From positions 1 to 64,000 of IMG/VR virus record IMGVR_UViG_3300044712_000786: a stretch of 64,000 bases of DNA, one strand, 5' to 3'. Below the pieces are notes generated by a model that was not told the origin of the DNA, searched no databases, and saw nothing but the letters and a program-made list of their open reading frames with translations. This DNA comes from a virus. Taxonomy: Duplodnaviria; Caudoviricetes. This document shows positions 42,997-62,633 of this stretch, piece by piece (position 1 is the first letter of the stretch; the number at the start of each line of letters is the position of its first letter). A program made the translations under genes and the position numbers.

Positions 42997-44121
42997 ATGG
43001 CAAGAAATCGTGTTATTTACCAGTCTGAAGGCGTGTTCGTTGGTCAAAAGACCCCTTGCACTGGCGACCACTACCCCGCAGATATCAAAGAAATTTATCG
43101 TGTACAAAGCGCGAACTACTCTTTCAACCTTAATAAGCGTGACGTTAACCAGTTTGGTGAACTAGCCGCTATTGATAGAGTCGTTCTCGACCCTCCCACT
43201 GTTTCCCTTGACGCTACTTATTTGCTCGCAAACGCTTATAATGAGAACGCTTTGGGAATGAACGTTGCCGTTGCTGGAACTGCTACTTGGAGCAATGCTC
43301 TAACTGGTATTCTTGGCGGCACCACTGACCAAAAATGTATTTGGGTGAAGACAGTTGCTTATGGCTCCGACCTTCATAACCTTAATACTACTGGCGCTTC
43401 AGTAACTCCTTTCGGCGTTATTGGCTTTGGTAATGGTTATTTAAGCTCATATTCTGTTGATGCTTCGGTTGGTGATTTTCCTCGCGCTAGCGTTCGTTTC
43501 GACGCATCAAACGTTAAGTTCGATAACTTTACTGGCGGTGGATTTACTAACTATGCAACCCAAGCTTTAGTAAGCCCCGCTATTTCGATTACGGACGGCA
43601 CGCTTATTAACTCTAAGTATTGGTTGCCTTCTGGTGTTTCGACTACCGACGCTACGGATAAGACTACTGTGTTACGTCCCGGTGACCTTGTGTTTGATTG
43701 GGCTAGCGCAACTGGCTTCATGGGAGCTAACCTTGCTGACGCTAAAATTCAGAGCTTCTCGATGTCTGCTGACGTTGCTAGAACCCCGCTGAATCGTCTT
43801 GGCACTAAGTTCCCATTCTCATACGAAATTAATTTCCCTATTAATGCTACGTTGAGAGTGTCGGCTAACGTTGGTGATATGAATACTGGCTCGCTTACTG
43901 CCCTAGTTAGCGATACTGGTAGCTTCGACCTGACCGTTAAGATTAATAAGCCGGGTACTACTACCGTTGCTTATGCTGCCGCTCTTAAGGGCGCTCAGCT
44001 TGACTCTCAGGAATATAGCTCGTCCATCGGTGATAACAAATCCGTTAACTGGAGCTTCTCGGTTCCTATCGGTGGCGTTAACGATGTTACTAAGGGCTTG
44101 TTCATCAGTGGTTTGCTGTAA
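42997..44121 (+). CDS. Major tail tube protein
   Basis: Highly expressed codon bias like MCP; RVQSANYSF...VNQFGELAAIDR; followed by a terminator; lies upstream of chaperones and TMP. Confidence 0.75.
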   Translation: MARNRVIYQSEGVFVGQKTPCTGDHYPADIKEIYRVQSANYSFNLNKRDVNQFGELAAIDRVVLDPPTVSLDATYLLANAYNENALGMNVAVAGTATWSNALTGILGGTTDQKCIWVKTVAYGSDLHNLNTTGASVTPFGVIGFGNGYLSSYSVDASVGDFPRASVRFDASNVKFDNFTGGGFTNYATQALVSPAISITDGTLINSKYWLPSGVSTTDATDKTTVLRPGDLVFDWASATGFMGANLADAKIQSFSMSADVARTPLNRLGTKFPFSYEINFPINATLRVSANVGDMNTGSLTALVSDTGSFDLTVKINKPGTTTVAYAAALKGAQLDSQEYSSSIGDNKSVNWSFSVPIGGVNDVTKGLFISGLL

Positions 44122-44142
44122 TTAATCTAAGTTAATCAAAAG

Positions 44143-44177
44143 TAAGCTCGATTTTCCAAAATCGGGCTTATTTTTTT
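44143..44177 (+). terminator. Intrinsic terminator after tail tube gene
   Basis: TAAGCTCGATTT-TCCA-AAATCGGGCTTA 12-bp stem (one G-U) followed by T7. Confidence 0.8.
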
Positions 44178-44194
44178 CCCCTTTATCTAAAACA

Positions 44195-44200
44195 GTGTAA
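44195..44200 (+). promoter_or_regulatory. GTGTAA putative late promoter
   Basis: Directly after the tail-tube terminator. Confidence 0.65.
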
Positions 44201-44224
44201 ATCTGATTGGTAAAAGGTCTATCT

Positions 44225-46478: not shown

Positions 46479-49400
46479 ATGAACTTAGACGGAAAATTAG
46501 TAATTGGTGCGGACGTAACCCCAGCCCTTAATGAGATAGTAAGGATGGCGGGTAAGCTGCCCCCCTTCAAAATTAGAGTAGACACCCGAAATTTCCCATT
46601 AGGCTCAATGGCGAAATCGGCTGACCAGTTTGCTCAATCCATTCAGGCCGCTAATCAACGTGTGTTAGCTTTCGGAGCTTCGGCGGGAACCATTTACGCA
46701 ATAGAAAAAGCTTTTAGATTCCTAGTATCTTCTACTATCGAAGTAGAAAAGAGACTTACTGAAATCAATGTAATTTTGGGGGCTTCTAGCTCGAACTTAA
46801 AACAATTCAGTAATGAATTATTTAACATTGCCAAAACGACTGGTCAAAGCTTTGATGAAGTATCTAAAGCAGCCCTAGAATTCAGCCGTCAAGGTTTGGG
46901 AGTAACTGAAACTTTAAAAAGAACTCGTGACGCCCTTATCCTGACCCGTCAAACTGGTATTGATGTTGGCGAGGCGGTTAGCGCCATCACCGCTACTTTA
47001 AACAGTTTTACTAAAGCTGCTTATGATTCTACTACGGTAATTAATAAGTTAGCTAAAGTTGACCAAAACTTTGCTGTTAGTGCAGGCGACTTAGTCGAAG
47101 CTATTAAGCGCGTAGGTAGCTCCGCTGAAGACGCGGGAGTTTCCTTGGATGAACTTATCGCTATGGTAACCTCTGCTCAACAGATTACCGCTCGTGGAGG
47201 TTCTGTTATTGGTAACGCCTATAAGACTATCTTTACTAGGTTACAACGTCCTGAAGTATTGAACCAGTTAGAGGAAATTGGTGTAGCCGTTAGAGATAAC
47301 AGTAACGCTATTCTTCCCGCTATTAAAATACTGGAGAACTTCTCTAAGTCCTATGATAACCTTAATCAGTCTCAGAAATCCGCCGCTACTGAATTAGTCG
47401 GTAGCGTTTATCAGATTAACGTTTTAAAAGCTGGATTGAAAGACTTGGGGAGTAGCTATTCTTTCTACGAAAGAGCTTTAAATGACTCCGCTTCCGCTAC
47501 TGATGAAGCTATCCTTCGTAACGAGAAGATGAATAAGTCTATCGCTGCAATGGTGAACTCTACTAAGGAAAGTTGGAAACAACTTTCTGCTGATATTGGC
47601 GAGCAAGCTATTGGCCCAGCTATTAAAAGGGCTTTGGGGGCTTTTGATTTTGCTGCTGGTGGATTAAGCGAACTCTTTTCCAAAAACAAGGGCTCTGGAG
47701 AACAATCAGTTAATATTGGTAAAGACATCGGTCAAGGAATTCTAAAGGGACTTTCTCAATTTATAGAAGGACCGGGATTAGCTTTGGTTGGCTTAGTAAT
47801 GTTTCGCTTCGCTAAAACATTTACTAAATTTGCGATTGATTCTGCTAAAGTAGTTGGCGAACTTAATAAAAATATAGAAAATCGGGCTATCTTGGAAAGC
47901 GAAATTGCGACTGTTTTAGCTCAACAACCTAAAATCTACGAAAGACTTCTAAGCGGAGAGATTACCCGAGAACAAGCGGAAAGGGAAGTTCTTACTATTA
48001 TTAGAAATCAAAATGCCGCCTTAGATATCCAAAAGGGTATTATTACTAGCATGGGAACTTCTATTTCTACTCGTGGAGCAGCGGCAGTTACAAGAGATAA
48101 AAAGGTTGTTGTGGCTGCTTCTAGAGGATACATCCCAAACTTCGCAAACCCCGTTCTTACTGAAAGGGCGGGGGCTTACAAAGCTGGTTACGTGCCGGGA
48201 AAAGTTAAACTTTTCGAAAATAAAGTCATTAATGATGCGGAAAGAGTTATTCCTCCTTCTAATCTAAAAAATCTGGGCTCGACAGCTAATACTTCTGCCA
48301 TCGTCCCTCCTTTAGCTAGCCCCGCTGGACAGGTTTATAAAGCTGCTTTTAAGACTATGTCGGGAGTAGATTTAGCTACTGGACAAAAGGGTTTCATGTA
48401 TGGAAGAAATTACTTTCAACGCGAATGGATTAAAAGCACGGCTAAAAATAGAAAGCTGAGCGTTAATGACCCCGATGTTATTATGACTTTGGGGAAGGAA
48501 TTCGCGAATAAATATGGAACTAAACAGGGGTTCCTTGCTGTAAATAAAGGTTTTGTACCTAATTTCGCGCAGTACCAGTATCCTACCATTGCTGCTATAA
48601 GGAAGCAGCGTCCTCAATTAGGGGATATCTTGAAAAATGCTCCTACAGTTTGGGGGCAGGCTACTGGACAGAGATTCCTTAATCATGATTTGACAGGCGA
48701 TAAAATCCCCATCAGCTATAGAGATAATATTAACTTAGGGGATATGATGAATAACATCCTAGCGAAAGGTAAATTCAGGGCTAGTGAGGGATTCGTTCCT
48801 AGTTTCGCTTCCTTTAAAGAATATAAGGGTATCGGTCTAACCGCCAGAGTCCCCGATAGCGAAATCCTTGACCCCGAAGCTGCTTCAAAATTTGCTCAAA
48901 AACTTTCCTTAGATGGAAACGTATCTACTTTGCTGAAAGTTATTCGTAAAGTTGCACCTAAAAGCCCCGCGCTCGAAGATAATTCTTTGAAATTTGAAGT
49001 AAACTCGGGACTTAGATTTGGTAACGATTTTAAAGCTAGTGGCTTATATCAGTCTGATAATGATACAATATCTATATCCTCTTCTGCTAGAAGCCAGACC
49101 CTAGCTCATGAAATGGGGCATATGGTAGATATATCTTCATTCAGTGATTTTTATAAACAGTCGGGTTTTTCAAGAAAAAAACTTATCAACGCATTAAGAA
49201 GGGACCAAATAAAGTTTAAATCTCGACCTTATTTAATGACTGGAGCTTTTGACGGAGACATGGTTAGAGACATGCTAATGATGTATAGAAGCCCAGATAA
49301 AAGAAATAAGGAAGCTATTGCTGATATTTTTGCGGATTCTGGAAGGATATTCAATCCCAAAATGGAGGATTATAGTCATAAAAAGTATCTAACTACTGGT

Positions 49401-52400
49401 GAAGCGCCGAAAATGATTCGCAAAGGGATTAAGAAAATATTAGGATTAAAATCTAGCGGATTTATTCCTAACTTTGGACCCATCAAAGACCCCTATAAGG
49501 TAAATCCTATTTATCATGTACTAGAGACGATTAGAAAATCAAGTGGCAGCGATTATCAAAATAATTGGGGTGAGCCCATAAACTACGATGAGAGACAAGA
49601 AGAGAATAAAAGACTAATAGCTTCTGTAAAATCTATCGGTTTTGCAGGCTACGGAATCAAAAGTGATAATAAAGATTACCAAATTGGTTCTATGTTTGCC
49701 CCTTATGCTATAACTACTGGATATGAAGAAAAGGAGGTGGCTAAATACATCCCCATGGATAAACTGAAGGCGGCTGGGCTATCCGAAAGACGTATTTATA
49801 AAATGCTCTTTAAAGGAGATAGACTGAGTTCTCGTTTCCAGCAGTATAACGACCCCTTTTCTATCGAATCCTCTCAGGCAAAAATACGCAGAGCCAAAGA
49901 GGGTATCGCCGTTAAAAAAGCCTCTGGAAATACTATAAACCTAAATGCTGCAACATATCTAGCTAGCCGAATGAAGGAAAATAGTCAAGATAAGTGGGCT
50001 CAGCAAAACGCTATTAGCGAAGCTCTTAACACTATAGTTCCTTATCCAGAGCTACAATCTGAGAAACAGGAAGGAAAGGTAGTTAAACAATATCTTAGTT
50101 CAGGCGACAATAAATATAAGCGCGGTTCCCTTAAGGAAACCAAAGAAAAGCTTATGCAATATTTTGGAATCAAAGTAAACAAAACAGACGCCGCAGGAAT
50201 GTTATCTGAGAAACGTCTACTAAGAAGTTTAGGTTTGGCTTCTCGTGGAAGCCCAACTTTAGCAGAGGACAGGGGGCTAGAGCTTAATGACTATAAAAAT
50301 AATCAACAAAGACGTATAACGGTCTCTTCTAAAATAGGTCAATATAGAAAAGAGTTAGAAATAGCTTCTTTAGTTGATAATCCTATATCTCCCGCGATGT
50401 CTTTAGATGACTATAGGCGTTATATTTTAACGCACGGCGCTACTCCAACTACCCCATTTTCGAGGGTAATTACTCAGTTACAAAGGGCGTCTGCTAAGGA
50501 GGACAAGGGGGATAGAAAAACTAATCTAGAATATGCATTACGAAGTATAGCGGGGGGAAGTGTATCATCCACTGCCACAATTAGAAATTTGCCGCGCCTA
50601 AATAAAATATTTCCAGAATTGAAATTGACAAATAAAGAAATTATTAGAGCTTTCAAAAATTCCACTTATGGAAAAATATTCCGACCCGCAGAACAAAAAC
50701 CGTCTATTTTAGGTCAAACGATGGAGTCCCTTAAGGCATTTAAAGGCTTTAGGTCAACTCAAGCAAAGGCTAGATTAGGTAGAGGGGAAGTAAAAGGCGT
50801 TACTCAAGATATGTTCAATTCGGATATAACCCCTTATGCATCATTCTCTATTATTCAAAGGGAAACCCCTAAAAATATACAAGATATCTTATTTAATCTA
50901 GAAAAATCATTTGCCGACAGAGTCAGTCAATCCAAGCTGCTATTTAGAGGCTCTAGTATAATTGAGCCAATGCTAGTTAATCTATTAGGTTCATTTACTT
51001 CTCTAGGAGGTAGGACAGACGAAAAAAGAATAAGGTCTTATCTTACTTCTTCTATTGTAAAATCCGCTAGTTACGGACTTAGCTCTCCGATAGGGGATAA
51101 AAAAGGCGTAGTAAGCATTTATTCTCGACCAATATTGGAAAATTTAGGACTGCTTCAATCTGGTTTAGTTCCTAGTAATGAACAAGCTAATTCTGTTGTT
51201 GCAGAAAGGCTACATAGAAAAGCTTTAATGGGGGTATTAAATCTAGAGAATGGCAGACTGCTTAAGCCAAAAGACTTCATGTCTTCAGTAAGAGATATAG
51301 AAATACCAGAAGAACTGATTCAATTTAATAGGGGACTAAACGAGTTAGCTTCTGGCTCTATTATAAATCGAGCAAGTCCTAAAATAACCTCCACTCCGAT
51401 GGGCGGGGTTATGAACCTATATCGAAAAGTAGAAACAAGTGGAATGACGCCAAGACAAAAAGATTTTAGAGGGCCTAAAACACCGCTGCCTTTCGAAGAT
51501 ATAAAGGGCTGGGATAGCGAGCGAATGGTTAAATACCTACGAAGTTCTCTAGGTGATACTGAAAGGGGAGTAGCTCCATTTGGTTCAGAACATTCTTCTT
51601 ATTTCGATTTAAGATACATGTCTTTTACTGATAGGAAGATGAGAAAAGATATTGCAGAAGGTAGAGTTAGTCTTCAAGATTACTCTTCTATTATTTTCCA
51701 AAGAAAAGTTCCCGTTCAGGAACTTGTAACCCCAGAAAACTTGGGCGATATAATGACTTCTGGGGAAGCTACTAAAAAGAAAATATTTGATAGGGGCGTG
51801 TTTTTTGACCTTCCTCGGTTTAGAGATAAGTTCGGAATTAGTGAACATACTTCAGAACGCGAATATCCATTTTTAACAACTGCTCCCGCTGGAAAAGTAT
51901 CTAACTTCGGTAAAATTTTCGGGCTTTCGAGAAGTAAGGGATATGTTCCTAATTTTGCCTATATTCCCGGCATAAGTCAATTAGCTGGAAGACTACTTAC
52001 TAATATAACTCATACCGAAAGCTATGGGTTAAAAGAAAGAATGGATTCCATCAAACAATTAAAACTTAAAGACTATATTGGGGCTCTGGTAAAAGATATA
52101 CCTACCCCCGCTGCATCCCCTAAAGGAGAGGTATGGAATACTTACGATAGGGATATCCTATTCCGTTCGGTCTTTAAATTGCCACATAGAGTTCTAATGC
52201 CCGAAAATCAAGACTTTCTTAAGTCTAGAAAATTAGTTAAAACTTCTGATAGTACATATAGGTTGACTAACAAAGGACGCATACTAAGTAATGCTTTACA
52301 AAGTCTATCTCAAGGCAAGTATGCTCCACAACCTAATAACCCCAACGAGCTTTATATTCTAGGCCAAAATAAAACTATGGGGGGTTTTGACTTTACGATT

Positions 52401-55400
52401 AACAAAGACCAAAATAAGGTCGGCTATCATGACCTTTGGGATTTCGCCAAAAACCCTTGGGAAAAATTCGATTTCAAAGGCGCGCTAAGTTTTGCTGGCC
52501 AATATGCTAAAAGCGTAGTTAAGAATCGTTCTTTTGGAATGACTGACGAATTAAGGTCTCACCCCTTTGTAGCGGAAGATAACTCGATGTATCGCCAAAG
52601 CCCAGCTTCTATGTTGGCTAGAATGGCAATTAGTCCGTTTGCTAGACCTGTTCGAGTTCAAGACTCTTTCTCCCCTCTAAGTAAAGAGAAAGTAGAAAGA
52701 CTGCAAAAACTCAAGTCCTCTTCTTCATATGGAAGCAAGAGACATAAAGTTTATAATCAAGCTCTAACAGATGATAGCCTAGTAAAGCAACTGCTAGAAC
52801 TAGCAAAAAATCCCCCTCCTTCTGTAGGCATAATGAATAAAGGCTTTGTTCCTAATTTCGTTCTACCCAACAAGGGTTTCTTGGGCTCTCCATTCCCGTT
52901 TGAAGACTTCAGAAAGCTTAAAACGCTTGAAGAGCAATATAAGTTCATTAAAAGCGAGTTTCCTAAAGTGGGGCTAGCTAACCATCCTATTGGCGAGGGC
53001 TCTTCTCGCGCCGTTTATGGTATCGGCGGTAATATGGTATTAAAAATGGTTAAAGATACCAAGCATATTATCGATGGATATAAAAGCCACCCTCTAAACG
53101 AAGCTATTAGACAGAAAGTTTTACTAAAAGGATTTGCTCAAAATCAAACAGAGGGAAGTCAAATGTTTGCTGGCTTCCGAGACATTGTTCCTTATAACTA
53201 TGAAGTAGACGATAGATTCAAATACATCATAGCCGAAAGAGCAGCGGCAATGACCCAAGCAAATGCGGTTAAATTCGGTTATCCATCTGTTTCCGATGCT
53301 CTATATGAGCCCCGCTTCCGTAGGAGACTTACTTCTCTTTATAAAACGGGAGTAATTCCAGATGAAGGTTCTAAAAACTTTGGATTTATAAGGAGAGGGG
53401 GAGAAAATAGACCCGCGTTAATCGACTATGGATTAGACACTCAAACAGCTAAAAATCTATATGGTTTTACTGGGCAGGATTTTATTTCTAAGGGTTTAAT
53501 CCCGAATTTTGCTATAGAGTTTAAGGATAGAAAGCGCATCTATAAGACAGGCTTTGGTGGAGATACAGAGTTTCTAGAAAAGGTTCTATCTAAAATTAGC
53601 CCCGATACATCCTTACTGCAAGCTACTATTCATGGTAGTAGAGACGAATTATTGCAGCGAGTTACCCCAGCGGAATTAGAAGAAATTCTCGCGCTTAAGA
53701 ATATACCTATTAATAAAGACACTATTGCTCATATTAATATAGTAAAAACCCGTTTCGGTAATCTTCCTCATACCTTTGGTATTCAGCAGAAACTTTCTGG
53801 AAGCACGGCCCCCCTTGTGGTTGTTCCTTCGTTCCCAGACCCAGTAATTAACGCTGAAACTGGATTAGGCACTAAAGAAGGTAGGGGAACACTTATTAAT
53901 ACTATCCTAACGAGAAATCCTCGCGGAGAAGGAATAGTTCGCCCATCAGTAGATAGATTTGGACAGATAATGAAGATTCTCCAAGATAAATGGGGTAATA
54001 CTACAGAAGTTATTGGACTAGAAAGAGCTAGGCAGATGTTCGGCCTAAACGCAAAAAGGAAGGCTAGTGGATTCATTCCTAACTTTGCTGACCCGCTTAA
54101 ACTTGCTATAGCTCGCGAAATAGCCGCTGGTGTTCCAGCTAGCTTAATTAAAGTAGAAAATCACGCAAGTCTTAAGAGCGCAAATAATCCATTGGGATTA
54201 GCGGTTACCAATAAAAGAGACGAGCCCAACGGAGTATCCCAAGGTATTTCCCGCGCTATACGCGAGGGAGCTAACCCTAAAACTTATGGTAGCGGTAGGG
54301 TTCCCAACTTTGCTGACCAACCCCGAATTCTAACTGGCTTAAAGGGAATTTTACAGTCTAATCCCGCAACCGATGCTAACTTCAATCAGGGAGTTAGAGA
54401 CGAAATACTAGAAAAAGCTAAGACCCTAGTATTAAAAATGAAAGATAGTCAGGTTCCTATTGGGGAACTCGGGGTTCAAGCAGATAAGGCAGTTAAACAG
54501 TTTACCAAAATGGTAGCTGGTTTGACTAAGTCTCAGGAAATGATTGACTCATTTTCTAAGTCAATTAGTTATTGGAAGAGAGAAAATCAGAAGAACCGCC
54601 CTTCTACTCCGCTGAAGAATCAAGCGGATATTGGGGCTGGATTAGCTGCCCAAAATGCTTTAGAAGCCGAACTTCAAGCAAAAAGACAAGCTCAAGAAGA
54701 AAGAACTCAAAAGAGAAGATTAGATGCTCAAAGTTTCAAAGAAAAGACAATTACATCTACAGTAGGGCGCATTAATCAAGGCGAATTTATTCCTAATATA
54801 AGAAAGCCTATTTTGGCAGATGAAAGAGTAAGCGGAGCCCTGAAAAATCAAGCGATTTCCGTTGTCTCTGATGGAGGATTTGTATTAAGTGGGGATAGGA
54901 AGAAATACTATGACTGGTTAGCGAAGAACGATAAACAAGCCTTCAGGGGCGCTAAACAAATGAGAAACGCTAATCTCCAAAACAGAGCCTTTGGAGTAAG
55001 TTTCGGGGCTTCTATGGTTGGTGGACTAGCTAGCCAATTTATTGGTGACGCTACTCAAGAAAGAAGAGGATATAGTAAAGCTGTCGAAGGTGGGGCTAAC
55101 ACTCTAGCTATGGGAGCATTAGGCTTTCAGGTAGCTGGGCCAGCAGGAGCATTAGCTTTGGGTGCTGTATCGGGATGGGGTGCTGTTACGGATACTATTA
55201 AAGCCTTTAATGACACTCTTCCTGATTTACAAAAGAATCTGGAAGCTGTAACCGAAAGGTCTACAAGGACTTCAGACGCATTTAGTAAGTTCATACAGAC
55301 TAGCGAACAAATCAATAGTATTTTACTAAGTCCTAAACCGGGAGCAGCTAGAGAGTTACAACGCTTACGCACTCAACAATCTTCGGCGCTCGCAGATATT

Positions 55401-58400
55401 CCAGATAGAGACTCATTTGGTAAGTCTGCACGACAAGACCTATTAGACGCATTTAAAACTGGCGACGTAAACAAACAAATCGAAATCTCCGAAAGAGTAG
55501 CTAAGAGAATAGGAACAGAGAAAACCGCTGCCGAATTAGAAACTGGCTTTGCCGAATATCTTGACAAAAATAAGAAGATAAACAGCGAGGGATTTAGCCG
55601 AATTGACAGCTTTGAAAGGACTCTAAGGAGTTCTGTTAATAAGCAGGGATTAACCTTTGACCAATTCTTAGCTACTAATCCCGGCTCCTTAGACTATATT
55701 AAAAGCTCTGGAAGCGCCGAACAAATGGATTCTCGCCTAAGGGAATTAATTAATAAATTCGACCCTAGCTTTAATACTTCGTTTTCTGGAGCATTAAATA
55801 AACTATTTACAGAAGAAGGACCGCTTAAGCAGAACGCATATAAGAGAGTATTTAGCGGAGCTACTAACGAACAATTGGATAGCGAGCGAAAAGCCCTTGA
55901 ATTAATGAATAGAAATCAAGTAGAAAGCGCTAAATATATCGAATCCTTCGGTAATCAAGTTTTCTTAACTAAGGAAAAATTCCGCTCATTTACTGATGAT
56001 ATCGTCGCCTCGATGGAGAGGTTTAATGCTAATCTGCAAGCCGCAAATGAAAGAATAGATATATTCGGTAAGGGTCTAATTGATTTAAATGAACCTTCCT
56101 TGCGCCCCGAGGGACAACTAAATATTAGTCAGGGATTTAGAGATATACAGACAAAAGCGCAAGCCCAATCTCAATTTTCTCTAATTCAGAAACAGTTTGA
56201 ATCTGCTATGAGCGCTGCCCTAACTAAGGCGGAAACCCAAAGGTTCGACGCATTTGAAAAGTTAATGGGCGAAAAAGCTGGTGTTCTAAGTGGCGCTCAA
56301 CAAGTATCTAACGCCGCTTATACCAACGTTCTTTCTGGCGGTGACTTACTACAAAAACTAAACAATATTAATAATAGGACCGAAGTAACGGGTGGATTAT
56401 CTGAGATTAACAAAATTAATCAAGAATCTATCAGAAACACTTTAGAGGAATTTAACAAGATTGCCCGAGAAAAAGATAGCTCTATTACTGCTTTAATAGA
56501 TACTACCGCTAATAAGTTAGCCGCTCTTGATTTAACCAAGACTTTGGAAACTAGCCGCCTTAACTTGAATCAAAAGTTGAATTACGGGGGCGGGTTATCC
56601 GAAATACTAAATGGTAATATCAAAGCCCAGATGGTTCAGCTAGGAACCTCCGCTAATGTAGCTAATACTCTTAGAAACAGCACTGCTCCCGGTGAAGTAG
56701 CTTATCAAAGGGCTGAAATTCTTAAGAAATTCAACGTAGAAGTTCCCGAAAGCCTTAGGAAAGAACTATTTACAGAAAGTAAAAAGAATTTAACTCAAGC
56801 TGGTTTTTCGATTCCCGATGAGGTAATTCAAAAACAAATAGATTCTACATTCCCTAAATCTGACCCAGAGCGAGAAGCTAAAATAATTAAAGCTATGGAG
56901 GAAATGGCTAAACTAAGCCTCGCTGCTGTAAATGAAGAGTCATTAATCAAGCAAACCGAGCTAAGTATTGCTACTCAAACCCAGATTAACACTAAGAATA
57001 TATCTGATGGAATAGCACAAATATTAAAAGATGGATTGAAGGTAAGCGAATCTAAGAACACTAAAGATAGTCCCGCTCCTAGCTCATTTGAAATGCCAAT
57101 GTCTTGGGACATGCCTGCTAATCCGATGCTAAAGTATGATATTGGCTCAGTTTCTAAATCTATTAAATCTAAGGAAGAAGAATTTAAGAAAATAGAAGAT
57201 AATCCTGTAATGACTGTAATGCAGCGCGAAGGATGGTCTCCGTTTGCCGAAGCTAAACCTAAAAAACTTTATACTTTTTCTGATTTAAGGGAGATGGAAA
57301 GACTACAGGGAGAAATTGATAAAGATAAAACGACTCTTGCTAAAATCAAATTAGACGCCGCCAGAAATCAAATCTCTATTCCGTTTGGAATGTCACAAGA
57401 CTGGGAAGATAGCAAACCTAGCAAAATTACCCCTAATATAGGAACAACGAAAGCTAACTTAGGTTATTACGGAGGGATGGCTTATGATTTACCGATGCCG
57501 ATGACCCCTTCTCTGCCAGTCTATAATAACAAGAATATTATTACTCTAGCGGAAATTAAAGCTAAACAAATTAACGCAGCTAACGAAAAGAACTTCGGGG
57601 ATGTTATAAGGGAAGGACCGTTGCCTATTTCAACTACGGACCCAACTGCTCGACCACAAGCTAAAAATACTAGATACGCGGCAGAATTAAGACAGAGAAT
57701 AGAATTAGACGCCGCTACTAAAGATTATATAGCTAGCACGAAAGAATTAACAGAAGCTATGTATGGTGCCGTTGGAGGTTTTACTACCTTTAATGATACC
57801 ATTATCTCTACTCAAAAAACTCTAATTGACTTTGCGGGGTCAGTAAAAGAAGGTTTCCATGACTTAATTGGCTTAGCTATAAGAGGAACGGGCGATATTG
57901 AGGAAAGATTCCGCGAAATGTTCGAGGAAATACTTAATAAAGCCGCAACAAATATGGCTTCTAGCGGACTTGACTTTGTATTTAGCCAAGTTACTAAGGG
58001 TATTGGAGTTGAAAGCCTATTCAAGAATAAGGGCGGTTATATTCCTCGATTCTCTGAGGGTGGAGTAGTAAGAGGGGGTTCGGGAACTAAAGACGATGTT
58101 CTAGCTCAGCTTAGCGGCGGCGAATACGTTATCAATAGGTCCGCTGCTGAAAAAATTGGTTATAAAAACCTAGAAGCAATTAATAAAGGAGGTTCTTCGG
58201 GCGGTCCTTCTAACTGGGACGCTTTTGGGGCTGCTGGTGGAGCCGATTCATTTATTAATCAGCGCTCTAGCGGGATTACCGCTCATTTACAGAATGCTTA
58301 TCGATATAATGACCCTCGTCAGCCAACTGCTGGAGAGGTTGTAGTTGACCCTAGGTTGTCTATCCAAGCTCTAACTGACATGGATAATCCTCAAAGCAGG

Positions 58401-59213
58401 ATTAGAATGGAAAGGGAAGAGAATCTATTAAACTACATAACAGATAAACAAGATTTTCAAAAAGCCCAAGACAAGGCTCAGAAACAGTATAAGGAAGGTC
58501 TATGGTGGAGCTTTGGAACATCTTTAGCTGGCGCTGCTGGCAATACTTGGGCAGCGGGAGCTAAACCTAATACTTTAGGTGGCAAAGACTTTAAGGGAGC
58601 TTATGATACCTCTACTTCGGCTGAAGGCGCTGATTGGTCTAATCCCGGCTTTGAATACGAAAGATTCCAGTGGGATAGTAGTGTATCTCGCAGACCCCTA
58701 ACCCGTAATTCGGGAGGTTCTATCAATTCTAAGACAGCTTTATTAACTGGGGGCGAATATGTTATGTCGCCTGCTACTGTAAGCCGCCTAGGGGTGTCTA
58801 GAATGAATACCTTGAACGCTGGACACGTTCCCACTTTCGCTCTAGGAGGGCTTATGGGCTCTTCTAACGCTGGAAGCTCTCCAGACTCACTTAAGGAGTC
58901 TATAGACAAGCTAGTAGCCGTTTCCCAAGAGATACGGGGCACCCTAGAGGGTAAGGATACTAAAACGGGTAATAAAGATTCGGCACCCGCTATATCCAAT
59001 AACGTTAATATAACTATTTCTGTTACTCAGACTGGAAAAGTCAACTCAGACACTCAAGTTTCGTCTGGTGCAGGGGCTTCCGAGAAGGAAGACAAGAATA
59101 AGAAGCAGGACGAATACAAGAAACTTGGTATGATGATTGAAAACAAGGTCTTGGAAGTTATTGTTCAGGAGCAGAGACCGGGGGGTCTGCTTTATGATTC
59201 CGAATCTCGTTAA
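46479..59213 (+). CDS. Giant tape measure protein (TP901-type N-terminus) carrying a polyvalent effector-like cassette array
   Basis: N-terminal TP901-family pattern (FNIAKTTGQSFDEVSKAALEFSRQG...GGSVIGNAYKTIFTRL); C-terminal GG..G.G...D...A.L..GEYV motifs; internal motif-delimited domains. Confidence 0.9.
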   Translation: MNLDGKLVIGADVTPALNEIVRMAGKLPPFKIRVDTRNFPLGSMAKSADQFAQSIQAANQRVLAFGASAGTIYAIEKAFRFLVSSTIEVEKRLTEINVILGASSSNLKQFSNELFNIAKTTGQSFDEVSKAALEFSRQGLGVTETLKRTRDALILTRQTGIDVGEAVSAITATLNSFTKAAYDSTTVINKLAKVDQNFAVSAGDLVEAIKRVGSSAEDAGVSLDELIAMVTSAQQITARGGSVIGNAYKTIFTRLQRPEVLNQLEEIGVAVRDNSNAILPAIKILENFSKSYDNLNQSQKSAATELVGSVYQINVLKAGLKDLGSSYSFYERALNDSASATDEAILRNEKMNKSIAAMVNSTKESWKQLSADIGEQAIGPAIKRALGAFDFAAGGLSELFSKNKGSGEQSVNIGKDIGQGILKGLSQFIEGPGLALVGLVMFRFAKTFTKFAIDSAKVVGELNKNIENRAILESEIATVLAQQPKIYERLLSGEITREQAEREVLTIIRNQNAALDIQKGIITSMGTSISTRGAAAVTRDKKVVVAASRGYIPNFANPVLTERAGAYKAGYVPGKVKLFENKVINDAERVIPPSNLKNLGSTANTSAIVPPLASPAGQVYKAAFKTMSGVDLATGQKGFMYGRNYFQREWIKSTAKNRKLSVNDPDVIMTLGKEFANKYGTKQGFLAVNKGFVPNFAQYQYPTIAAIRKQRPQLGDILKNAPTVWGQATGQRFLNHDLTGDKIPISYRDNINLGDMMNNILAKGKFRASEGFVPSFASFKEYKGIGLTARVPDSEILDPEAASKFAQKLSLDGNVSTLLKVIRKVAPKSPALEDNSLKFEVNSGLRFGNDFKASGLYQSDNDTISISSSARSQTLAHEMGHMVDISSFSDFYKQSGFSRKKLINALRRDQIKFKSRPYLMTGAFDGDMVRDMLMMYRSPDKRNKEAIADIFADSGRIFNPKMEDYSHKKYLTTGEAPKMIRKGIKKILGLKSSGFIPNFGPIKDPYKVNPIYHVLETIRKSSGSDYQNNWGEPINYDERQEENKRLIASVKSIGFAGYGIKSDNKDYQIGSMFAPYAITTGYEEKEVAKYIPMDKLKAAGLSERRIYKMLFKGDRLSSRFQQYNDPFSIESSQAKIRRAKEGIAVKKASGNTINLNAATYLASRMKENSQDKWAQQNAISEALNTIVPYPELQSEKQEGKVVKQYLSSGDNKYKRGSLKETKEKLMQYFGIKVNKTDAAGMLSEKRLLRSLGLASRGSPTLAEDRGLELNDYKNNQQRRITVSSKIGQYRKELEIASLVDNPISPAMSLDDYRRYILTHGATPTTPFSRVITQLQRASAKEDKGDRKTNLEYALRSIAGGSVSSTATIRNLPRLNKIFPELKLTNKEIIRAFKNSTYGKIFRPAEQKPSILGQTMESLKAFKGFRSTQAKARLGRGEVKGVTQDMFNSDITPYASFSIIQRETPKNIQDILFNLEKSFADRVSQSKLLFRGSSIIEPMLVNLLGSFTSLGGRTDEKRIRSYLTSSIVKSASYGLSSPIGDKKGVVSIYSRPILENLGLLQSGLVPSNEQANSVVAERLHRKALMGVLNLENGRLLKPKDFMSSVRDIEIPEELIQFNRGLNELASGSIINRASPKITSTPMGGVMNLYRKVETSGMTPRQKDFRGPKTPLPFEDIKGWDSERMVKYLRSSLGDTERGVAPFGSEHSSYFDLRYMSFTDRKMRKDIAEGRVSLQDYSSIIFQRKVPVQELVTPENLGDIMTSGEATKKKIFDRGVFFDLPRFRDKFGISEHTSEREYPFLTTAPAGKVSNFGKIFGLSRSKGYVPNFAYIPGISQLAGRLLTNITHTESYGLKERMDSIKQLKLKDYIGALVKDIPTPAASPKGEVWNTYDRDILFRSVFKLPHRVLMPENQDFLKSRKLVKTSDSTYRLTNKGRILSNALQSLSQGKYAPQPNNPNELYILGQNKTMGGFDFTINKDQNKVGYHDLWDFAKNPWEKFDFKGALSFAGQYAKSVVKNRSFGMTDELRSHPFVAEDNSMYRQSPASMLARMAISPFARPVRVQDSFSPLSKEKVERLQKLKSSSSYGSKRHKVYNQALTDDSLVKQLLELAKNPPPSVGIMNKGFVPNFVLPNKGFLGSPFPFEDFRKLKTLEEQYKFIKSEFPKVGLANHPIGEGSSRAVYGIGGNMVLKMVKDTKHIIDGYKSHPLNEAIRQKVLLKGFAQNQTEGSQMFAGFRDIVPYNYEVDDRFKYIIAERAAAMTQANAVKFGYPSVSDALYEPRFRRRLTSLYKTGVIPDEGSKNFGFIRRGGENRPALIDYGLDTQTAKNLYGFTGQDFISKGLIPNFAIEFKDRKRIYKTGFGGDTEFLEKVLSKISPDTSLLQATIHGSRDELLQRVTPAELEEILALKNIPINKDTIAHINIVKTRFGNLPHTFGIQQKLSGSTAPLVVVPSFPDPVINAETGLGTKEGRGTLINTILTRNPRGEGIVRPSVDRFGQIMKILQDKWGNTTEVIGLERARQMFGLNAKRKASGFIPNFADPLKLAIAREIAAGVPASLIKVENHASLKSANNPLGLAVTNKRDEPNGVSQGISRAIREGANPKTYGSGRVPNFADQPRILTGLKGILQSNPATDANFNQGVRDEILEKAKTLVLKMKDSQVPIGELGVQADKAVKQFTKMVAGLTKSQEMIDSFSKSISYWKRENQKNRPSTPLKNQADIGAGLAAQNALEAELQAKRQAQEERTQKRRLDAQSFKEKTITSTVGRINQGEFIPNIRKPILADERVSGALKNQAISVVSDGGFVLSGDRKKYYDWLAKNDKQAFRGAKQMRNANLQNRAFGVSFGASMVGGLASQFIGDATQERRGYSKAVEGGANTLAMGALGFQVAGPAGALALGAVSGWGAVTDTIKAFNDTLPDLQKNLEAVTERSTRTSDAFSKFIQTSEQINSILLSPKPGAARELQRLRTQQSSALADIPDRDSFGKSARQDLLDAFKTGDVNKQIEISERVAKRIGTEKTAAELETGFAEYLDKNKKINSEGFSRIDSFERTLRSSVNKQGLTFDQFLATNPGSLDYIKSSGSAEQMDSRLRELINKFDPSFNTSFSGALNKLFTEEGPLKQNAYKRVFSGATNEQLDSERKALELMNRNQVESAKYIESFGNQVFLTKEKFRSFTDDIVASMERFNANLQAANERIDIFGKGLIDLNEPSLRPEGQLNISQGFRDIQTKAQAQSQFSLIQKQFESAMSAALTKAETQRFDAFEKLMGEKAGVLSGAQQVSNAAYTNVLSGGDLLQKLNNINNRTEVTGGLSEINKINQESIRNTLEEFNKIAREKDSSITALIDTTANKLAALDLTKTLETSRLNLNQKLNYGGGLSEILNGNIKAQMVQLGTSANVANTLRNSTAPGEVAYQRAEILKKFNVEVPESLRKELFTESKKNLTQAGFSIPDEVIQKQIDSTFPKSDPEREAKIIKAMEEMAKLSLAAVNEESLIKQTELSIATQTQINTKNISDGIAQILKDGLKVSESKNTKDSPAPSSFEMPMSWDMPANPMLKYDIGSVSKSIKSKEEEFKKIEDNPVMTVMQREGWSPFAEAKPKKLYTFSDLREMERLQGEIDKDKTTLAKIKLDAARNQISIPFGMSQDWEDSKPSKITPNIGTTKANLGYYGGMAYDLPMPMTPSLPVYNNKNIITLAEIKAKQINAANEKNFGDVIREGPLPISTTDPTARPQAKNTRYAAELRQRIELDAATKDYIASTKELTEAMYGAVGGFTTFNDTIISTQKTLIDFAGSVKEGFHDLIGLAIRGTGDIEERFREMFEEILNKAATNMASSGLDFVFSQVTKGIGVESLFKNKGGYIPRFSEGGVVRGGSGTKDDVLAQLSGGEYVINRSAAEKIGYKNLEAINKGGSSGGPSNWDAFGAAGGADSFINQRSSGITAHLQNAYRYNDPRQPTAGEVVVDPRLSIQALTDMDNPQSRIRMEREENLLNYITDKQDFQKAQDKAQKQYKEGLWWSFGTSLAGAAGNTWAAGAKPNTLGGKDFKGAYDTSTSAEGADWSNPGFEYERFQWDSSVSRRPLTRNSGGSINSKTALLTGGEYVMSPATVSRLGVSRMNTLNAGHVPTFALGGLMGSSNAGSSPDSLKESIDKLVAVSQEIRGTLEGKDTKTGNKDSAPAISNNVNITISVTQTGKVNSDTQVSSGAGASEKEDKNKKQDEYKKLGMMIENKVLEVIVQEQRPGGLLYDSESR
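48126..54311 (+). repeat. Nine dispersed G-[FYLR]-[IV]-P-[NS]-F linker motifs within TMP
   Basis: Motifs start at 48126, 48549, 48789, 49458, 51939, 52842, 53493, 54069 and 54294. Related copies at 58035 (GYIPRF) and 58821 (GHVPTF). Confidence 0.9.
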
Positions 59214-60074: not shown

Positions 60075-62612
60075 TTAGCTATAAACGATAGGAATTAAAG
60101 GAACGTAAGTCCAAGCGGGAACGTTATTGTCTAGTCCCCCGCCTACGCCCGTAGAAGTATAACCCGTGCATACAAACAAATGAACGATAGAACCAGTCAT
60201 ACCCATGTCTGGATTACCAGTGCCTACGGTTACCATACCGGGGTATCCCGGTCTATAACCACGAGCCTTACTAGGGGTATACATGTTATTCTGAAGAACT
60301 AAAGCCCCACTTCTAACCCATACGTTTCCAGAAGCAAAGAAATTGACCGAGTTATCCCAAGTAGGAGACTTGGCATAAGTAGAAGCGTCTGCGATAACAC
60401 TCGCCCCGCTCTTAGTAGTAATGTTATGACCAAAAGCCAAGGAAGAATTAGCAGCCGTATTTTTTGTTCCACCTAGGACTAATCCGTAATCGCTAGAAAC
60501 AGTGTTGCCAGTTCCATTAAGAACTGTTCCATAATTAGCTGCGGAGACGGTATTGCCTCGACCATTACCGATGAATGAAAATGTAGAGCTAGAACTTACC
60601 GTTTGTCTTGTTCCATGAACAATAACCGAATACTGGGCGGAAGTAATTTGATTTAGCTTACCGTTTAAGATGACATCCATATGGTCACCAACGGGAGTAT
60701 CAATAGAGTTTCCAGAGCCATTACCTATCAACGAAAAATTACTATAGCAGAAATTAGTAACACCATTGCCAATGGTAGCATAATTAGCAGCGGTTGCTCC
60801 GCAATTAACGCCATTTGCTTCAGTATAATTACATTGAAGAATAACTACTCCAGAACCAAAAGACTGACAAAATGAGCCATCGCTTGTGCTGTTTTCCGCG
60901 CCTCCTAAAATCGTAGAATAATTATTTGAACTAATGGAGTTACTATAACCTCCAGCGGAAGAATAATCGCTGCTCGTAACATGGTTATCGAATCCAAAAA
61001 TAATAGAGCTATAGCTACTATCAACCGTATTACTATAACCTCCTAAAATTGTGCTGTATAGCTTCAAGGTTTTAATAGTATTACTACGTCCCCCGAGAAT
61101 TCCCCCGTAAGCTCCAGAATTAGTATTGCTGCGCCCACCAGCTATAACGCCATAAGTCGCGTCTAGATTATTATCGTTTCCTCCCCCGATAAAACTAGCT
61201 GATGAATTTATCTTGTTAGTATCTCCACCAGCAATAACGGAATTAGTAGCCTTTAGTAAATTAGCTTGCCCCCCACCCACAACCGAATATGTTCCGCTAC
61301 AAATGTTATTCAATCCCCCCAGCAGAGAAGAGAATCCTAGCAAACAAGAATTGCCTAATCCTCCACCAATAGTAACATACAAATCGGCGGCTGTTCTTCC
61401 AGCTACATTAGTAGCTCCACCCACAATACAGCTATAAGTGCTAGCAATAGTATTGCTTTCCCCACCTAAAGAGCAAGATTTAGCTCCACTTATTCTATTG
61501 GATAAGCCACCTACAATACATGAATCGGTAGCACCCGCTACGATAATGTTACTGGTTCCCCCCGCAATAACGCTAGAATCGCTCAGAACAGAGTTTTTAA
61601 ATCCCCCACCAATAGAAGCTCCGTCTGCATTTTGAAGTAAATTACCAGTTCCACCTACGCAAGAGCTATAATCAGAACCGCTGATAGTATTTGTAAATCC
61701 AGCTAAGCTAGCTACATATTTGCTTAACTTAACTGAGTTAGAGCTTCCCCCTAATATTAATGCTCCAGTAGCTCTATTAACATCTGAGTTCGTAGAAGAT
61801 ACAATAGAAGAATTAATTGCAGAAATTAAGTCGGAGTTATCTGAACCTATGACAGTAGAATAATTAGTTCCAGATACCATTGTATTAGTGCTGCCCACTA
61901 GAGAACATCCAGCCCCGCCAGTAACAGAATTATAATTACCTCCCAAAATTGAGCTATTAAGCGAGTCGGTAATCTGACTATAACCGCCCATAATAGTGCT
62001 CTGGTCCGAATTAACAATGGTGTTGCTATAACCTCCAATAAGAATTGAGTAGTCTCCAGAAGTTATTGAGCTTGCTTCGTTGGCTATAATAGAGGCATTA
62101 GTAGAAGCATGAATATTAGCGCTGCGAGACGAAATAACGGATGATAAAGTCGAATTTCCAGTAATATTACCCTGTCTGCTTCCTCCAATTATAGAATTAG
62201 AACCATAAATCGTATTGGTAAAGCCGCCTAGAACAATATTATTATTTCCAGAAATCGCCTGTTGATTTCCTCCTATAATATTACTGTATTGCCCAGTAAT
62301 CTTATTAGACCTAACCTGACCCACTACAAGACTTTCGAATAAACCAGTAGTATCAGCGGCACTAAAAACCGTGCCAGCCCCAGTCACCATTAAATTGCCG
62401 CTAAATATCCTCAGGGCTCCGTATCTCTCGCCAAAAAGACCATTCATCCCAACGGAGTTATTTAAAGAAATAAATAATCCAGAATGCAGGGCGCTCAAGA
62501 AGACGCTAGTCAAATCTACGCCATAACTAACCCCGCCCTTGTTAACGAATATTGTATCCGCTAAAGCTGGATTAGTAACCGTTGTCAATTGTGATACTTT
62601 TTTATCTGCCAT
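60075..62612 (-). CDS. Trimeric fibre/adhesin with ~15-aa GGxxN beta-roll repeats
   Basis: N-terminal MADKKVSQL fibre anchor; long run of S.I.GG..N repeats (about 60440-62300), YadA-head-like. Confidence 0.65.
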   Translation of the reverse strand: MADKKVSQLTTVTNPALADTIFVNKGGVSYGVDLTSVFLSALHSGLFISLNNSVGMNGLFGERYGALRIFSGNLMVTGAGTVFSAADTTGLFESLVVGQVRSNKITGQYSNIIGGNQQAISGNNNIVLGGFTNTIYGSNSIIGGSRQGNITGNSTLSSVISSRSANIHASTNASIIANEASSITSGDYSILIGGYSNTIVNSDQSTIMGGYSQITDSLNSSILGGNYNSVTGGAGCSLVGSTNTMVSGTNYSTVIGSDNSDLISAINSSIVSSTNSDVNRATGALILGGSSNSVKLSKYVASLAGFTNTISGSDYSSCVGGTGNLLQNADGASIGGGFKNSVLSDSSVIAGGTSNIIVAGATDSCIVGGLSNRISGAKSCSLGGESNTIASTYSCIVGGATNVAGRTAADLYVTIGGGLGNSCLLGFSSLLGGLNNICSGTYSVVGGGQANLLKATNSVIAGGDTNKINSSASFIGGGNDNNLDATYGVIAGGRSNTNSGAYGGILGGRSNTIKTLKLYSTILGGYSNTVDSSYSSIIFGFDNHVTSSDYSSAGGYSNSISSNNYSTILGGAENSTSDGSFCQSFGSGVVILQCNYTEANGVNCGATAANYATIGNGVTNFCYSNFSLIGNGSGNSIDTPVGDHMDVILNGKLNQITSAQYSVIVHGTRQTVSSSSTFSFIGNGRGNTVSAANYGTVLNGTGNTVSSDYGLVLGGTKNTAANSSLAFGHNITTKSGASVIADASTYAKSPTWDNSVNFFASGNVWVRSGALVLQNNMYTPSKARGYRPGYPGMVTVGTGNPDMGMTGSIVHLFVCTGYTSTGVGGGLDNNVPAWTYVPLIPIVYS

Positions 62613-62627
62613 ATACCTTAAAGTAGT

Positions 62628-62633
62628 TTACAC
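62628..62633 (-). promoter_or_regulatory. GTGTAA putative late promoter
   Basis: TTACAC on the + strand, 15 nt upstream of the ATG at 62612; overlaps the TAG of the upstream gene. Confidence 0.6.

Follow-up and report, generated by a model that had tools for sequence, protein, structure and literature searches.

A phage tape measure protein with eight unrelated inserted domains, each bounded by a common ten-residue seam

The tape measure protein (TMP) encoded in the window, a 64,000-nucleotide stretch of IMG/VR virus record IMGVR_UViG_3300044712_000786 from an uncultured soil phage, holds eight unrelated inserted domains, each bounded by one common ten-residue seam. Crossovers inside the 18 bases that code for the seam core add, remove, duplicate and exchange these domains, here called cassettes. 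Hence, the seam is very probably an exchange junction between cargo cassettes. The features of the TMP gene are listed below, with their coordinates in the window, strand and description; seams and their relatives are given with their weight-matrix scores.

46479..59213, + strand: TMP gene (P0001), 4244 codons, from the ORF list and translation
46479..48125, + strand: constant N-terminal TMP domain, aa 1-549, from the PhageMin_Tail and PHROG matches
48126..48143, + strand: seam 1, GYIPNF, aa 550, 30.5 bits
48144..48548, + strand: cassette 1, 135 aa, no family
48549..48566, + strand: seam 2, GFVPNF, aa 691, 23.3 bits
48567..48788, + strand: cassette 2, 74 aa, no family
48789..48806, + strand: seam 3, GFVPSF (Ser variant), aa 771, 25.8 bits
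48807..49457, + strand: cassette 3, 217 aa, zincin-like, HEMGH at aa 877, from the HExxH word and Atlas feature matches
49458..49475, + strand: seam 4, GFIPNF, aa 994, 23.9 bits
49476..51938, + strand: cassette 4, 821 aa, bounded by seams 4 and 5
51939..51956, + strand: seam 5, GYVPNF, aa 1821, 25.7 bits
51957..52841, + strand: cassette 5, 295 aa, no family
52842..52859, + strand: seam 6, GFVPNF, aa 2122, 25.0 bits
52860..53492, + strand: cassette 6, 211 aa, kinase-like, from Atlas feature matches
53493..53510, + strand: seam 7, GLIPNF, aa 2339, 20.8 bits
53511..54068, + strand: cassette 7, 186 aa, no family
54069..54086, + strand: seam 8, GFIPNF, aa 2531, 32.1 bits
54087..54293, + strand: closing module, 69 aa, N-P-x-G-L ... 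R-D-E-P, the family hallmark, from family alignments
54294..54311, + strand: seam 9, GRVPNF, aa 2606, 20.7 bits
54312..59210, + strand: C-terminal TMP body, 1633 aa; aa 2876-2894 form a hydrophobic segment; from translation and family layout
58035..58052, + strand: C-terminal relative GYIPRF, with SEGG and a GG..G..DD..A.L..GEYV unit after it, 4.4 bits
58821..58838, + strand: C-terminal relative GHVPTF, with a GGEYV unit before it and ALGG after it, 129 aa from the C-terminus, 8.8 bits

The N-terminal domain of P0001 was matched by Pfam PhageMin_Tail (PF10145) at aa 118-305 (E 6e-29; 101.8 bits, with a gathering cut-off of 33.2), and also by fourteen PHROG TMP families. In tblastn searches against cultured phages, the matches of P0001 were TMPs with 22-27% identity; aa 400-2700 and the closing module had no match there, and no PDB sequence matched aa 556-2616. 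Because contigs from four rhizosphere runs (two of them possibly the source itself) contained the gene unbroken and without a single letter changed, it is not an assembly artefact. Upstream of the TMP lies a gene set conserved in 54-80 of 80 related loci; the two ORFs immediately upstream encode helical, acidic proteins without a family match.

Nine in-frame words of the form G-x-[IV]-P-[NS]-F were found in the TMP. The stricter pattern G.[IV]PNF was observed 8 times, while 0.004 occurrences were expected from composition and none of 20,000 shuffles contained more than one. Its back-translation matched the whole 202,704-bp genome 8 times, always in frame in the TMP ORF (0 matches for the reversed control), and a six-frame scan of the genome likewise placed 8 of 8 matches within the TMP. 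A weight matrix trained on the family gave the nine seam words 20.7-32.1 bits and the two C-terminal relatives 8.8 and 4.4 bits, with everything else below 0. The sequence details described in the earlier note were confirmed. The small or basic patch preceding the word is present (the residues before Gly are SR, NK, SE, SS, SK, NK, SK, AS and GS), Ala follows seven of the nine words, the two relatives GYIPRF at 58035 and GHVPTF at 58821 both exist, and the DNA of the words varies at synonymous sites.

The word is the core of a full seam of ten residues, A-[AS]-x-G-[FLY]-[IV]-P-N-[FY]-A, which is confined to the TMP and shared by a large family of uncultured phages. Across 80 related loci, 409 seams occurred in 237,649 aa of TMP versus 0 in 239,844 aa of neighbouring ORFs, and 100 of 120 IMG/VR stretches with a back-translated GFIPNFA word carried it in ORFs with at least two seams. 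We defined the family by a closing module between two seams, a region for which P0001 scored 153.8 bits (aa 2527-2615; E 1.5e-40). The closing-module profile recovered 1012 cluster representatives (clusters at 50% identity), none of which came from cultured phages, and the module was also found in more than 147 IMG/VR loci; the family inhabits soil, freshwater and marine viromes. The 227 TMPs examined contained 1205 seams and 981 cassettes of 185 families, with 2-18 seams in 221 of the 227. The constant N-terminal part has an almost fixed length (median 629 aa). In P0001, the first seam follows this part directly at aa 550 (family range 530-652), and the cassette zone spans 2062 aa (family range 298-2277). 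A trade-off between the lengths of cassette zone and C-terminal body was sought and not found (Spearman rho +0.38). Two candidates for a natural gene fission at a seam were rejected: P0099 is cut by the end of its contig, and the split TMP of locus L090 results from a frameshift inside a cassette, beside homopolymer runs.

Over 1036 distinct instances, the information in the seam logo was confined to positions -3 to +6, and residue identity was near absolute at five positions. Asn was conserved in 97% and the preceding Pro was invariant; the Ser variant of seam 3 accounts for 3% of family seams. In an AF2 model of the closing module with both its seams, overall pLDDT was 74. The module core reached 83-86, and both seams were predicted as coil, in blocks averaging 50-70. 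The seam is thus a short linear motif beside many unrelated cassettes, and by this prediction it lies outside the one flanking fold that was modelled. The fold of the closing module had no match (best Foldseek hit in the PDB E 1.6; best VIA-align Z 3.0).

Most of the 185 cassette families match no known family, while the common ones in relatives include matches to SNase, GNAT and P-loop domains. None of the cassettes of P0001 had a Pfam domain match at E <= 0.1, and no homologue in a giant protein was found for cassettes 1-7. Cassette 3, which likewise lacks a Pfam match, had Atlas feature matches at 0.91-0.95 that include ATLF, Peptidase_M90 and DUF7211 clusters; AF2 prediction from the single sequence of this cassette with both seams gave a mean pLDDT of 35 and an unusable fold. 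The Atlas matches of cassette 6 (0.94-0.95) were clusters of SteC-type effector kinases and a cluster with PF18762 Kinase-PolyVal in 80% of its members. Free-standing homologues of the kinase-like and zincin-like cassettes were sought in searches limited by length, and none were found. Cassette 4 contains possible decayed seams at aa 1562 and 1805, with weak matrix scores of -4.1 and -2.4.

The earlier note had proposed the motif as a recombination anchor, and this is what the near-identical phages reveal: whole cassettes are replaced, inserted or deleted, and sequence identity breaks in or beside the 18-nt seam word. For instance, L060 and L062 are 99.7-99.9% identical on either side of one replaced cassette, with the breaks at the seams, and the same pattern was found in the pairs L053/L054, L027/L029, L036/L039 and L038/L039. 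Internal ends of protein HSPs fell within 3 aa of a seam in 53% of cases, versus 4% of random positions. At the DNA level, 52% of the internal ends of high-identity HSPs lay inside the 18-nt seam word (8% of random positions), and 92% lay in it or within 9 nt of it (14% of random positions). It is this clustering of DNA breakpoints in near-identical pairs that demonstrates the anchor. Since the crossovers lie inside the 18 coding bases of the seam, any recombinant keeps every cassette whole and in frame. Cassette order is shuffled accordingly, as positions and neighbours vary among the 981 cassettes. A search of the TMP gene for cassette deletions within the population of this phage found no deletion joints among contigs, which hide rare variants. 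Literature searches joining IPNF or VPNF with tape measure found nothing, nor did searches on TMP cargo arrays. What is new here is the exchange of whole cassettes between near-identical phages, with breakpoints at the seam word.

These crossovers, and the dominance of a few 12-nt words (the top eight make up 157 of 327 instances), might suggest that the seam is a recombination signal in the DNA alone, with a functionless peptide. We consider this very improbable. All synonymous codons of the seam occur at close to background frequency, and the 327 instances comprise 66 different 12-nt words; selection therefore acts on the peptide, as the earlier note had argued from the synonymous variation. 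Within P0001, moreover, the seams share a median of only 13 of 18 nt, with a median longest exact run of 6 nt, and the near-absolute amino-acid identity at five positions over the 1036 instances also speaks against a signal at the DNA level alone. Seams of one gene were no more diverged at synonymous sites than seams of different genes, as they would be if divergence served to avoid deletions (on average 14.87 of 18 nt shared within versus 14.92 of 18 between genes; p = 0.52).

Because the same ten-residue word stands at every boundary, whatever its neighbours, a single common factor probably reads it. Our preferred reading, held tentatively, is that the seams that serve as exchange junctions would also be cut after ejection, by the logic of a polyprotein. 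From its place between the constant N-terminal domain and the C-terminal body, the cassette array would be packaged in the virion and injected, as expected of part of a TMP, and would ride into the host with the ejected protein. The seams might then be cut by a protease other than the prohead protease. Candidates would be an enzyme of the host, an activity of the constant TMP parts that has escaped recognition, or the zincin cassette (in a minority of phages, such as the one carrying P0001). Cutting would set free enzymes such as the kinase-like and zincin-like domains of P0001; in relatives, the products would include nuclease, acetyltransferase and P-loop domains. As cutting all seams severs the N-terminal domain from the body of the ruler, it would be possible only after tail assembly. 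A search for a family-wide protease found none: only 16 of 191 TMPs have an HExxH word in their cassette zone, and the conserved neighbours of the TMP had no protease match. Against cleavage, furthermore, a host protease would need the same ten-residue specificity in all the hosts that the soil, freshwater and marine phages infect. A fuller version, which we regard as doubtful, is that the seam would be a plug-and-play connector, with enzymes carried ahead of the DNA, cut on arrival by a host enzyme or by the seam's own Asn, and traded within 18 bases. The TMP would then carry up to eight different enzymes here, and up to about 17 in relatives.

The earlier note had suggested that the phage prohead protease, which it assigned to the ORF at 23739-25211, or another protease could release each cassette; for the prohead protease this was not supported. 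Weak feature-space leads (0.92-0.93) connect that ORF with YonD_N, Peptidase_S77 and DUF2213 clusters, but it has no protease match in Pfam, PHROG or NCBIfam. The usual substrates of a prohead protease are capsid, scaffold or portal proteins that contain its site. The six-frame scan of the whole genome found the seam in no other ORF, head genes included, just as it is missing from the neighbouring ORFs of the 80 loci. Tails of long-tailed phages also assemble independently of proheads, and we find this explanation extremely unlikely. Self-cleavage of the seam at its Asn, with assembly or ejection as the trigger of a succinimide attack on the N-[FY] bond, would fit the conserved Asn, the invariant Pro before it, the flexible stretch and the failure to find a protease. 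Asn-dependent maturation cuts occur in the entry proteins of noda-, tetra- and reoviruses. However, the Asn cuts described so far depend on a folded catalytic environment, and nothing of that kind is conserved beside the seam; with a Ser variant present as well, at seam 3, we judge self-cleavage highly unlikely. Sortase, prepilin-peptidase, signal-peptidase, double-glycine and legumain sites were dropped as their key residues do not fit. The seam may instead be an uncut docking or register motif, in which two aromatic anchors around [IV]-P-N bind an assembly partner of the phage. Such a partner could be the tail assembly chaperone, the lumen of the tube or the other chains of the TMP trimer; the cassettes would be kept ordered and soluble during tube polymerisation, and would form a tethered string after ejection. 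Chaperone binding of TMP segments is established in other phages (PMC5099701). No family-wide protease was found, no complete gene is split at a seam in loci L009-L088, and the one split inspected (L090) lies inside a cassette. The evidence on the origin of the seam bears on docking as well. The earlier note had derived it from a TMP motif of the P-x-F-A-x-GG type, and 52 of 159 members indeed have words of the form [IV]P.[FY][AS].GG immediately ahead of the first seam; this does not extend to the other end of the array, since such words follow the last seam in only 10 of 159. A structural origin is favoured because related [IV]P.[FY]A.GG words occur in constant TMP parts, where there is nothing to release. 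Their presence before the first seam, and near the C-terminus in P0001, suggests an assembly role that predates the role as seam. Even so, a spacer or docking site need not occupy every boundary, no partner has been found, and a tethered string would confine the enzymes to the entry site. Docking without cutting seems rather unlikely. A predicted complex of the two chaperone-like upstream proteins with the closing module and its seams (score 0.20; mark 0.32) gave no evidence either way.

A docking partner could also be sought in the host. The seam might bind a periplasmic chaperone or prolyl isomerase of the SurA/FkpA type in a diderm host, which would bind the still unfolded string of cassettes on its way out of the tail. 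The heptapeptide WEYIPNV binds the P1 domain of SurA with a Kd of 1-14 uM (PMC7195389), and has four consecutive residues in common with the Y-I-P-N-F variant. Genome injection by HK97 requires its TMP and the periplasmic chaperone FkpA (Cumby et al. 2015, cited in PMC5099701), and the three genome bins in which the closing module was found (two Bacteroidota, one gammaproteobacterial) are all diderm. However, the likeness was noticed post hoc and involves a single chosen peptide. The SurA pattern, aromatic-polar-aromatic-nonpolar-Pro, begins with an aromatic-polar pair; at that place the seam has small residues and Gly, followed by [FLY]-[IV]-P-N-[FY]. Host assignment through prophages gave only these three bins, and the GNAT, kinase-like and P-loop cassettes need cytoplasmic cofactors. 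We regard binding of such a chaperone as improbable.

The examples known to us of how tailed phages deliver proteins ahead of their DNA are few, among them T4 Alt, the N4 polymerase and the P1 Dar proteins. In about a thousand protein clusters of the present family, the carrier would be the tail ruler, with one fixed connector between cargo units. Searching for the seam is an easy way to locate candidate early effectors or anti-defence domains by the hundred, and the seam provides a natural case of exchange at fixed in-frame junctions inside a structural gene. Should it turn out to work as a standard connector, through cleavage or docking, it could be taken over directly into designs that load foreign proteins into phage tails or tailocins.

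The seam-cassette TMP is a variant of polyvalent proteins and of the junction motifs of polymorphic toxins. Polyvalent proteins (Iyer, Burroughs, Anand, de Souza, Aravind 2017; PMC5512222) are likewise giant, virion-associated strings of unrelated enzyme domains for delivery to the host. Their kinase, GNAT, nuclease and zincin peptidase domains are shuffled from one relative to the next, and embedded metallopeptidases are predicted to split the proteins into units, which is a precedent for the cleavage proposed here. Similar features here are the eight non-homologous cassettes of P0001 and the SNase, GNAT and P-loop domains of its relatives, while for PF18762 Kinase-PolyVal and the zincin MPTase P0001 offers only Atlas feature-space leads (0.91-0.95). 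In contrast, polyvalent proteins have no uniform seam, and the metallopeptidase credited with their processing compares with an HExxH word in only 16 of 191 TMPs here. The paper on polyvalent proteins contains 0 occurrences of tape measure protein (PMC5512222). In the present family the carrier is the tail ruler itself, whose N-terminal part, C-terminal part and closing module are all fixed.

TMPs with embedded enzymatic motifs, such as the peptidoglycan-hydrolase motif of mycobacteriophage TM4 (Piuri and Hatfull 2006, cited in PMC5099701), resemble the present family in carrying an extra functional segment used at infection. They differ in that the segment is a single short motif, and they are not known to have a cassette array, a seam or exchange between relatives. 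Viral polyproteins also have one repeated short word between functionally unrelated units of a single translation product. Their protease and cuts are known, whereas in this TMP family both are putative.

The VENN junction of CdiA and the PxxxxDPxGL junction of Rhs proteins (PMC3150448) resemble the seam in that a short peptide bounds variable modules, DNA identity drops at the bases of the motif, and strains exchange the modules. Each protein of those systems has only one junction, with a single C-terminal toxin, an immunity gene and bacterial secretion. No immunity gene follows the cassettes of P0001, all of which are internal to one ORF. In contrast to the VENN and PxxxxDPxGL systems, the present family places up to 18 serial junctions, with an unrelated motif, in a structural protein of a phage.

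The tape measure protein (TMP) gene of the window belongs to a phage record of 202,704 bp with direct terminal repeats, of which the window covers the first 64 kb. Judged by sequence comparison, the N-terminal part of the protein is a genuine tape measure domain: PhageMin_Tail matches at residues 118-305 (101.8 bits; Pfam cut-off 33.2), 14 PHROG TMP families match this part, and the protein shares 22-27% identity with TMPs of cultured Bacillus, Lactococcus and Staphylococcus phages. The gene is unbroken and letter-identical in contigs of four rhizosphere metagenome runs, two of which are possibly the source. The repeated joint motif that the earlier note had described in this protein is real, and consists of nine words and two C-terminal relatives. 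We call the ten-residue unit around each word a seam, and the segments between successive seams cassettes.

46479-59213, + strand: TMP gene, 4244 residues encoded
TMP aa 550, 691, 771, 994, 1821, 2122, 2339, 2531 and 2606: nine words G-x-[IV]-P-[NS]-F
TMP aa 3853 and 4115: two looser C-terminal relatives of the word, adjoining GG...GEYV units
aa 1562, nt 51162: weak seam-like word SGLVPSNEQ, in an 821-aa cassette
aa 1805, nt 51891: weak seam-like word AGKVSNFGK, in the same cassette

From the composition of the TMP, 0.004 copies of G.[IV]PNF are expected, and each of 20,000 shuffles gave at most one. The back-translated pattern matched the genome eight times, always in the TMP ORF and in frame (reversed control, 0), and a six-frame scan likewise confined the seam words to this ORF. 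A weight matrix trained on relatives scored the nine words at 20.7-32.1 bits, the C-terminal relatives at 8.8 and 4.4, and all else below 0. The two weak words in the 821-aa cassette (aa 1000-1820; window 49476-51938) may be decayed seams of a segment that was once subdivided.

A first search retrieved four metagenomic giant TMPs with three to seven copies of the word each, separating mostly unrelated segments; in all four, the variable zone closes with a conserved module of ~85 residues between two copies. Searched against 1.84 billion proteins, a profile of this closing module matched 1012 representatives of 50%-identity clusters, of which 883 scored E <= 1e-10; it also matched at least 147 IMG/VR loci. 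Among cultured phages (50,697 records) it had no match, and among 185,579 species genomes it occurred in only three metagenome bins. The exact back-translated GFIPNFA word was present in 120 IMG/VR stretches, in 100 of them within ORFs with at least two such words. Members of the family share one architecture: first an N-terminal domain whose length is fixed (median 629 aa), then a word-bounded cassette zone of 298-2277 aa, the closing module and last a C-terminal body (median 1485 aa). The cassette zone of the window's TMP, at 2062 aa, is among the longest of the sample. The closing module, the hallmark of the family, lies at 54087-54293 (aa 2537-2605) and carries invariant R-E, N-P-x-G, N and D-E-P residues.

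The main new result is that crossovers map into the seam. The TMPs of two related loci, L060 and L062, have flanks that are 99.7% and 99.9% identical around a single, wholly different cassette (272 vs 342 aa). The identical block stops where a seam ends (aa 1322) and restarts at the first residue of the next; in the DNA, the match breaks off four bases into the left seam word and is regained at the seventh base of the right word. In other pairs of loci, a nuclease cassette was replaced by an unrelated one (L053 vs L054), or the difference amounted to one whole cassette (L027 vs L029) or two (L036 vs L039). In protein alignments of at least 85% identity, the internal C-terminal ends were no more than 3 residues away from a seam end in 53% of cases and no more than 10 in 75% (random positions, 4% and 14%). 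Megablast alignments (>=93% identity and >=300 nt) of 28 gene pairs gave 50 internal ends, of which 52% fell inside the 18-nt word and 92% inside it or no more than 9 nt away (random positions, 8% and 14%), although not all alignment ends in these counts are independent events. Crossovers may be favoured there by microhomology, or such recombinants alone may survive selection. Whichever cause holds, the seam is an exchange junction, as the earlier note had suggested in proposing a recombination anchor.

The 981 cassettes of 227 TMPs fell into 185 families with varying positions and neighbours; they are exchangeable cargo. A staphylococcal-nuclease domain, a GNAT acetyltransferase and P-loop domains are among the common families, most of which have no Pfam family. 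For cassettes 1-7 of the window no relatives were detected. As leads rather than assignments, the HEMGH-bearing aa 777-993 resemble zincin peptidase clusters in feature space, and aa 2128-2338 resemble SteC-type effector kinases and PF18762 Kinase-PolyVal. What looks like an empty slot left by cassette deletion, with only ten residues between one full seam and the next, occurs in L060 (aa 1595-1616) and in L062 (aa 1665-1686); in all, 21 cassettes of the 981 measure less than 50 aa. The L060 TMP also holds one cassette family as a tandem duplicate (aa 662-824 and 831-993), and duplication therefore occurs at seams as well. In locus L090 (71-7139), the TMP is spread over two overlapping ORFs by a frameshift within a cassette, adjoining T7 and A6 runs and not at a seam; this probably reflects either a sequencing error or recent pseudogene formation.

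The logo of 1036 distinct seams reads A-[AS]-x-G-[FLY]-[IV]-P-N-[FY]-A, with information essentially confined to positions -3 to +6. Seams are not part of the cassette folds, since they border 185 different families. Codons for Gly, Pro, Asn and Phe are near background usage, [IV]-P-N-F is encoded by 66 different 12-nt words in 327 instances, and seams within the window's TMP gene agree at a median of 13 of 18 nt, with a median longest exact run of 6 nt. Selection therefore acts on the peptide, in agreement with the earlier note. By sequence, the seam is exclusive to the TMP: 80 loci held 409 seams in 237,649 TMP residues, and none in 239,844 residues of neighbouring ORFs.

Other features of the window are as follows.

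42997-44121, + strand: 374-aa paralogue, KGLFISG at or near the C-terminus
62633-63943, - strand: 436-aa paralogue, KGLFISG at or near the C-terminus
44122-44206: GC-rich inverted repeat, then a T run, immediately downstream of the putative major tail gene (374 aa)
23739-25211, + strand: 490-aa ORF, Atlas feature neighbours YonD_N, Peptidase_S77 and DUF2213 clusters (0.92-0.93)
60075-62612, - strand: 845-aa protein, almost all short Gly/Ser/Asn-rich repeats of the GG.SN.I.G type
12977-17080, + strand: lambda J-like central tail fibre protein (PHROG 31, E 7e-139)

The two paralogues have similar N-termini and no Pfam or PHROG match; their family occurs in all 80 related loci, usually as two copies on either side of the TMP, and they are probably major tail proteins. 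Judged by its sequence, the inverted repeat looks like an intrinsic terminator ahead of chaperone-like genes and the TMP gene. The 845-aa protein, encoded convergently to the TMP, looks like a beta-helical fibre or spike. The central tail fibre gene is 30 kb farther upstream than the TMP gene, from which head genes separate it; in related loci, tail-tip genes directly follow the TMP, and the tail module has therefore been rearranged in this genome.

The ten-residue word stands at all boundaries whatever the flanks, a sequence pattern that argues for one common reader. We tentatively prefer the reading that the seam would be a cleavage site, in the fashion of viral polyproteins, and the processing site proposed in the earlier note is reasonable, though less likely than not. 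Polyvalent proteins are likewise predicted to be split into units (PMC5512222). Cutting would have to come after tail assembly, because the N-terminal domain would otherwise be severed from the ruler body. If cut before either aromatic position, the predicted new N-termini are F, L or Y. Under the bacterial N-end rule, N-terminal F, L and Y are ClpS degrons. Against cleavage count the absence of any family-wide protease match among the conserved neighbours of the TMP, the presence of an HExxH cassette in only 16 of 191 members, and the related [IV]P.[FY]A.GG words within constant TMP parts in one third of members. These last words fit an older structural role and favour a rival account of the seam as an uncut docking or register motif, which is somewhat less likely than cleavage.

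The protease that the earlier note named, that of the prohead, is a very improbable agent: no head gene contains a seam, ORF 23739-25211 (a possible prohead protease or scaffold fusion) had no profile match and offers weak protease leads only, and tails are assembled separately from proheads. That the seam is a dock for a host chaperone is improbable too. The Y-I-P-N-F variant shares four consecutive residues with WEYIPNV, a binder of the SurA P1 domain (PMC7195389), a likeness that was, however, spotted after the fact; in HK97, the TMP and the periplasmic chaperone FkpA are both required for injection, according to work cited in PMC5099701. The closing module could itself be a candidate reader of seams. 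In an AF2 model of seam, module and seam (100 sequences), its core is predicted as a small alpha/beta fold (pLDDT 83-86) with no PDB match by Foldseek or VIA-align, and both seams are coil, within blocks averaging pLDDT 50-70; in this model the module does not dock its own seams.

Our literature search found no paper on the seam or on TMP cargo arrays. In function, polyvalent proteins are similar to the cassette array; unlike the array here, the class was described without a TMP carrier and without a uniform seam (PMC5512222). The VENN and DPxGL junctions of CdiA/Rhs toxins are similar in evolution, as identity also drops at the motif-coding bases (PMC3150448). Their motifs are unrelated in sequence to the seam, and these toxins, in contrast to the TMP arrays, carry one C-terminal junction each and come with immunity genes.
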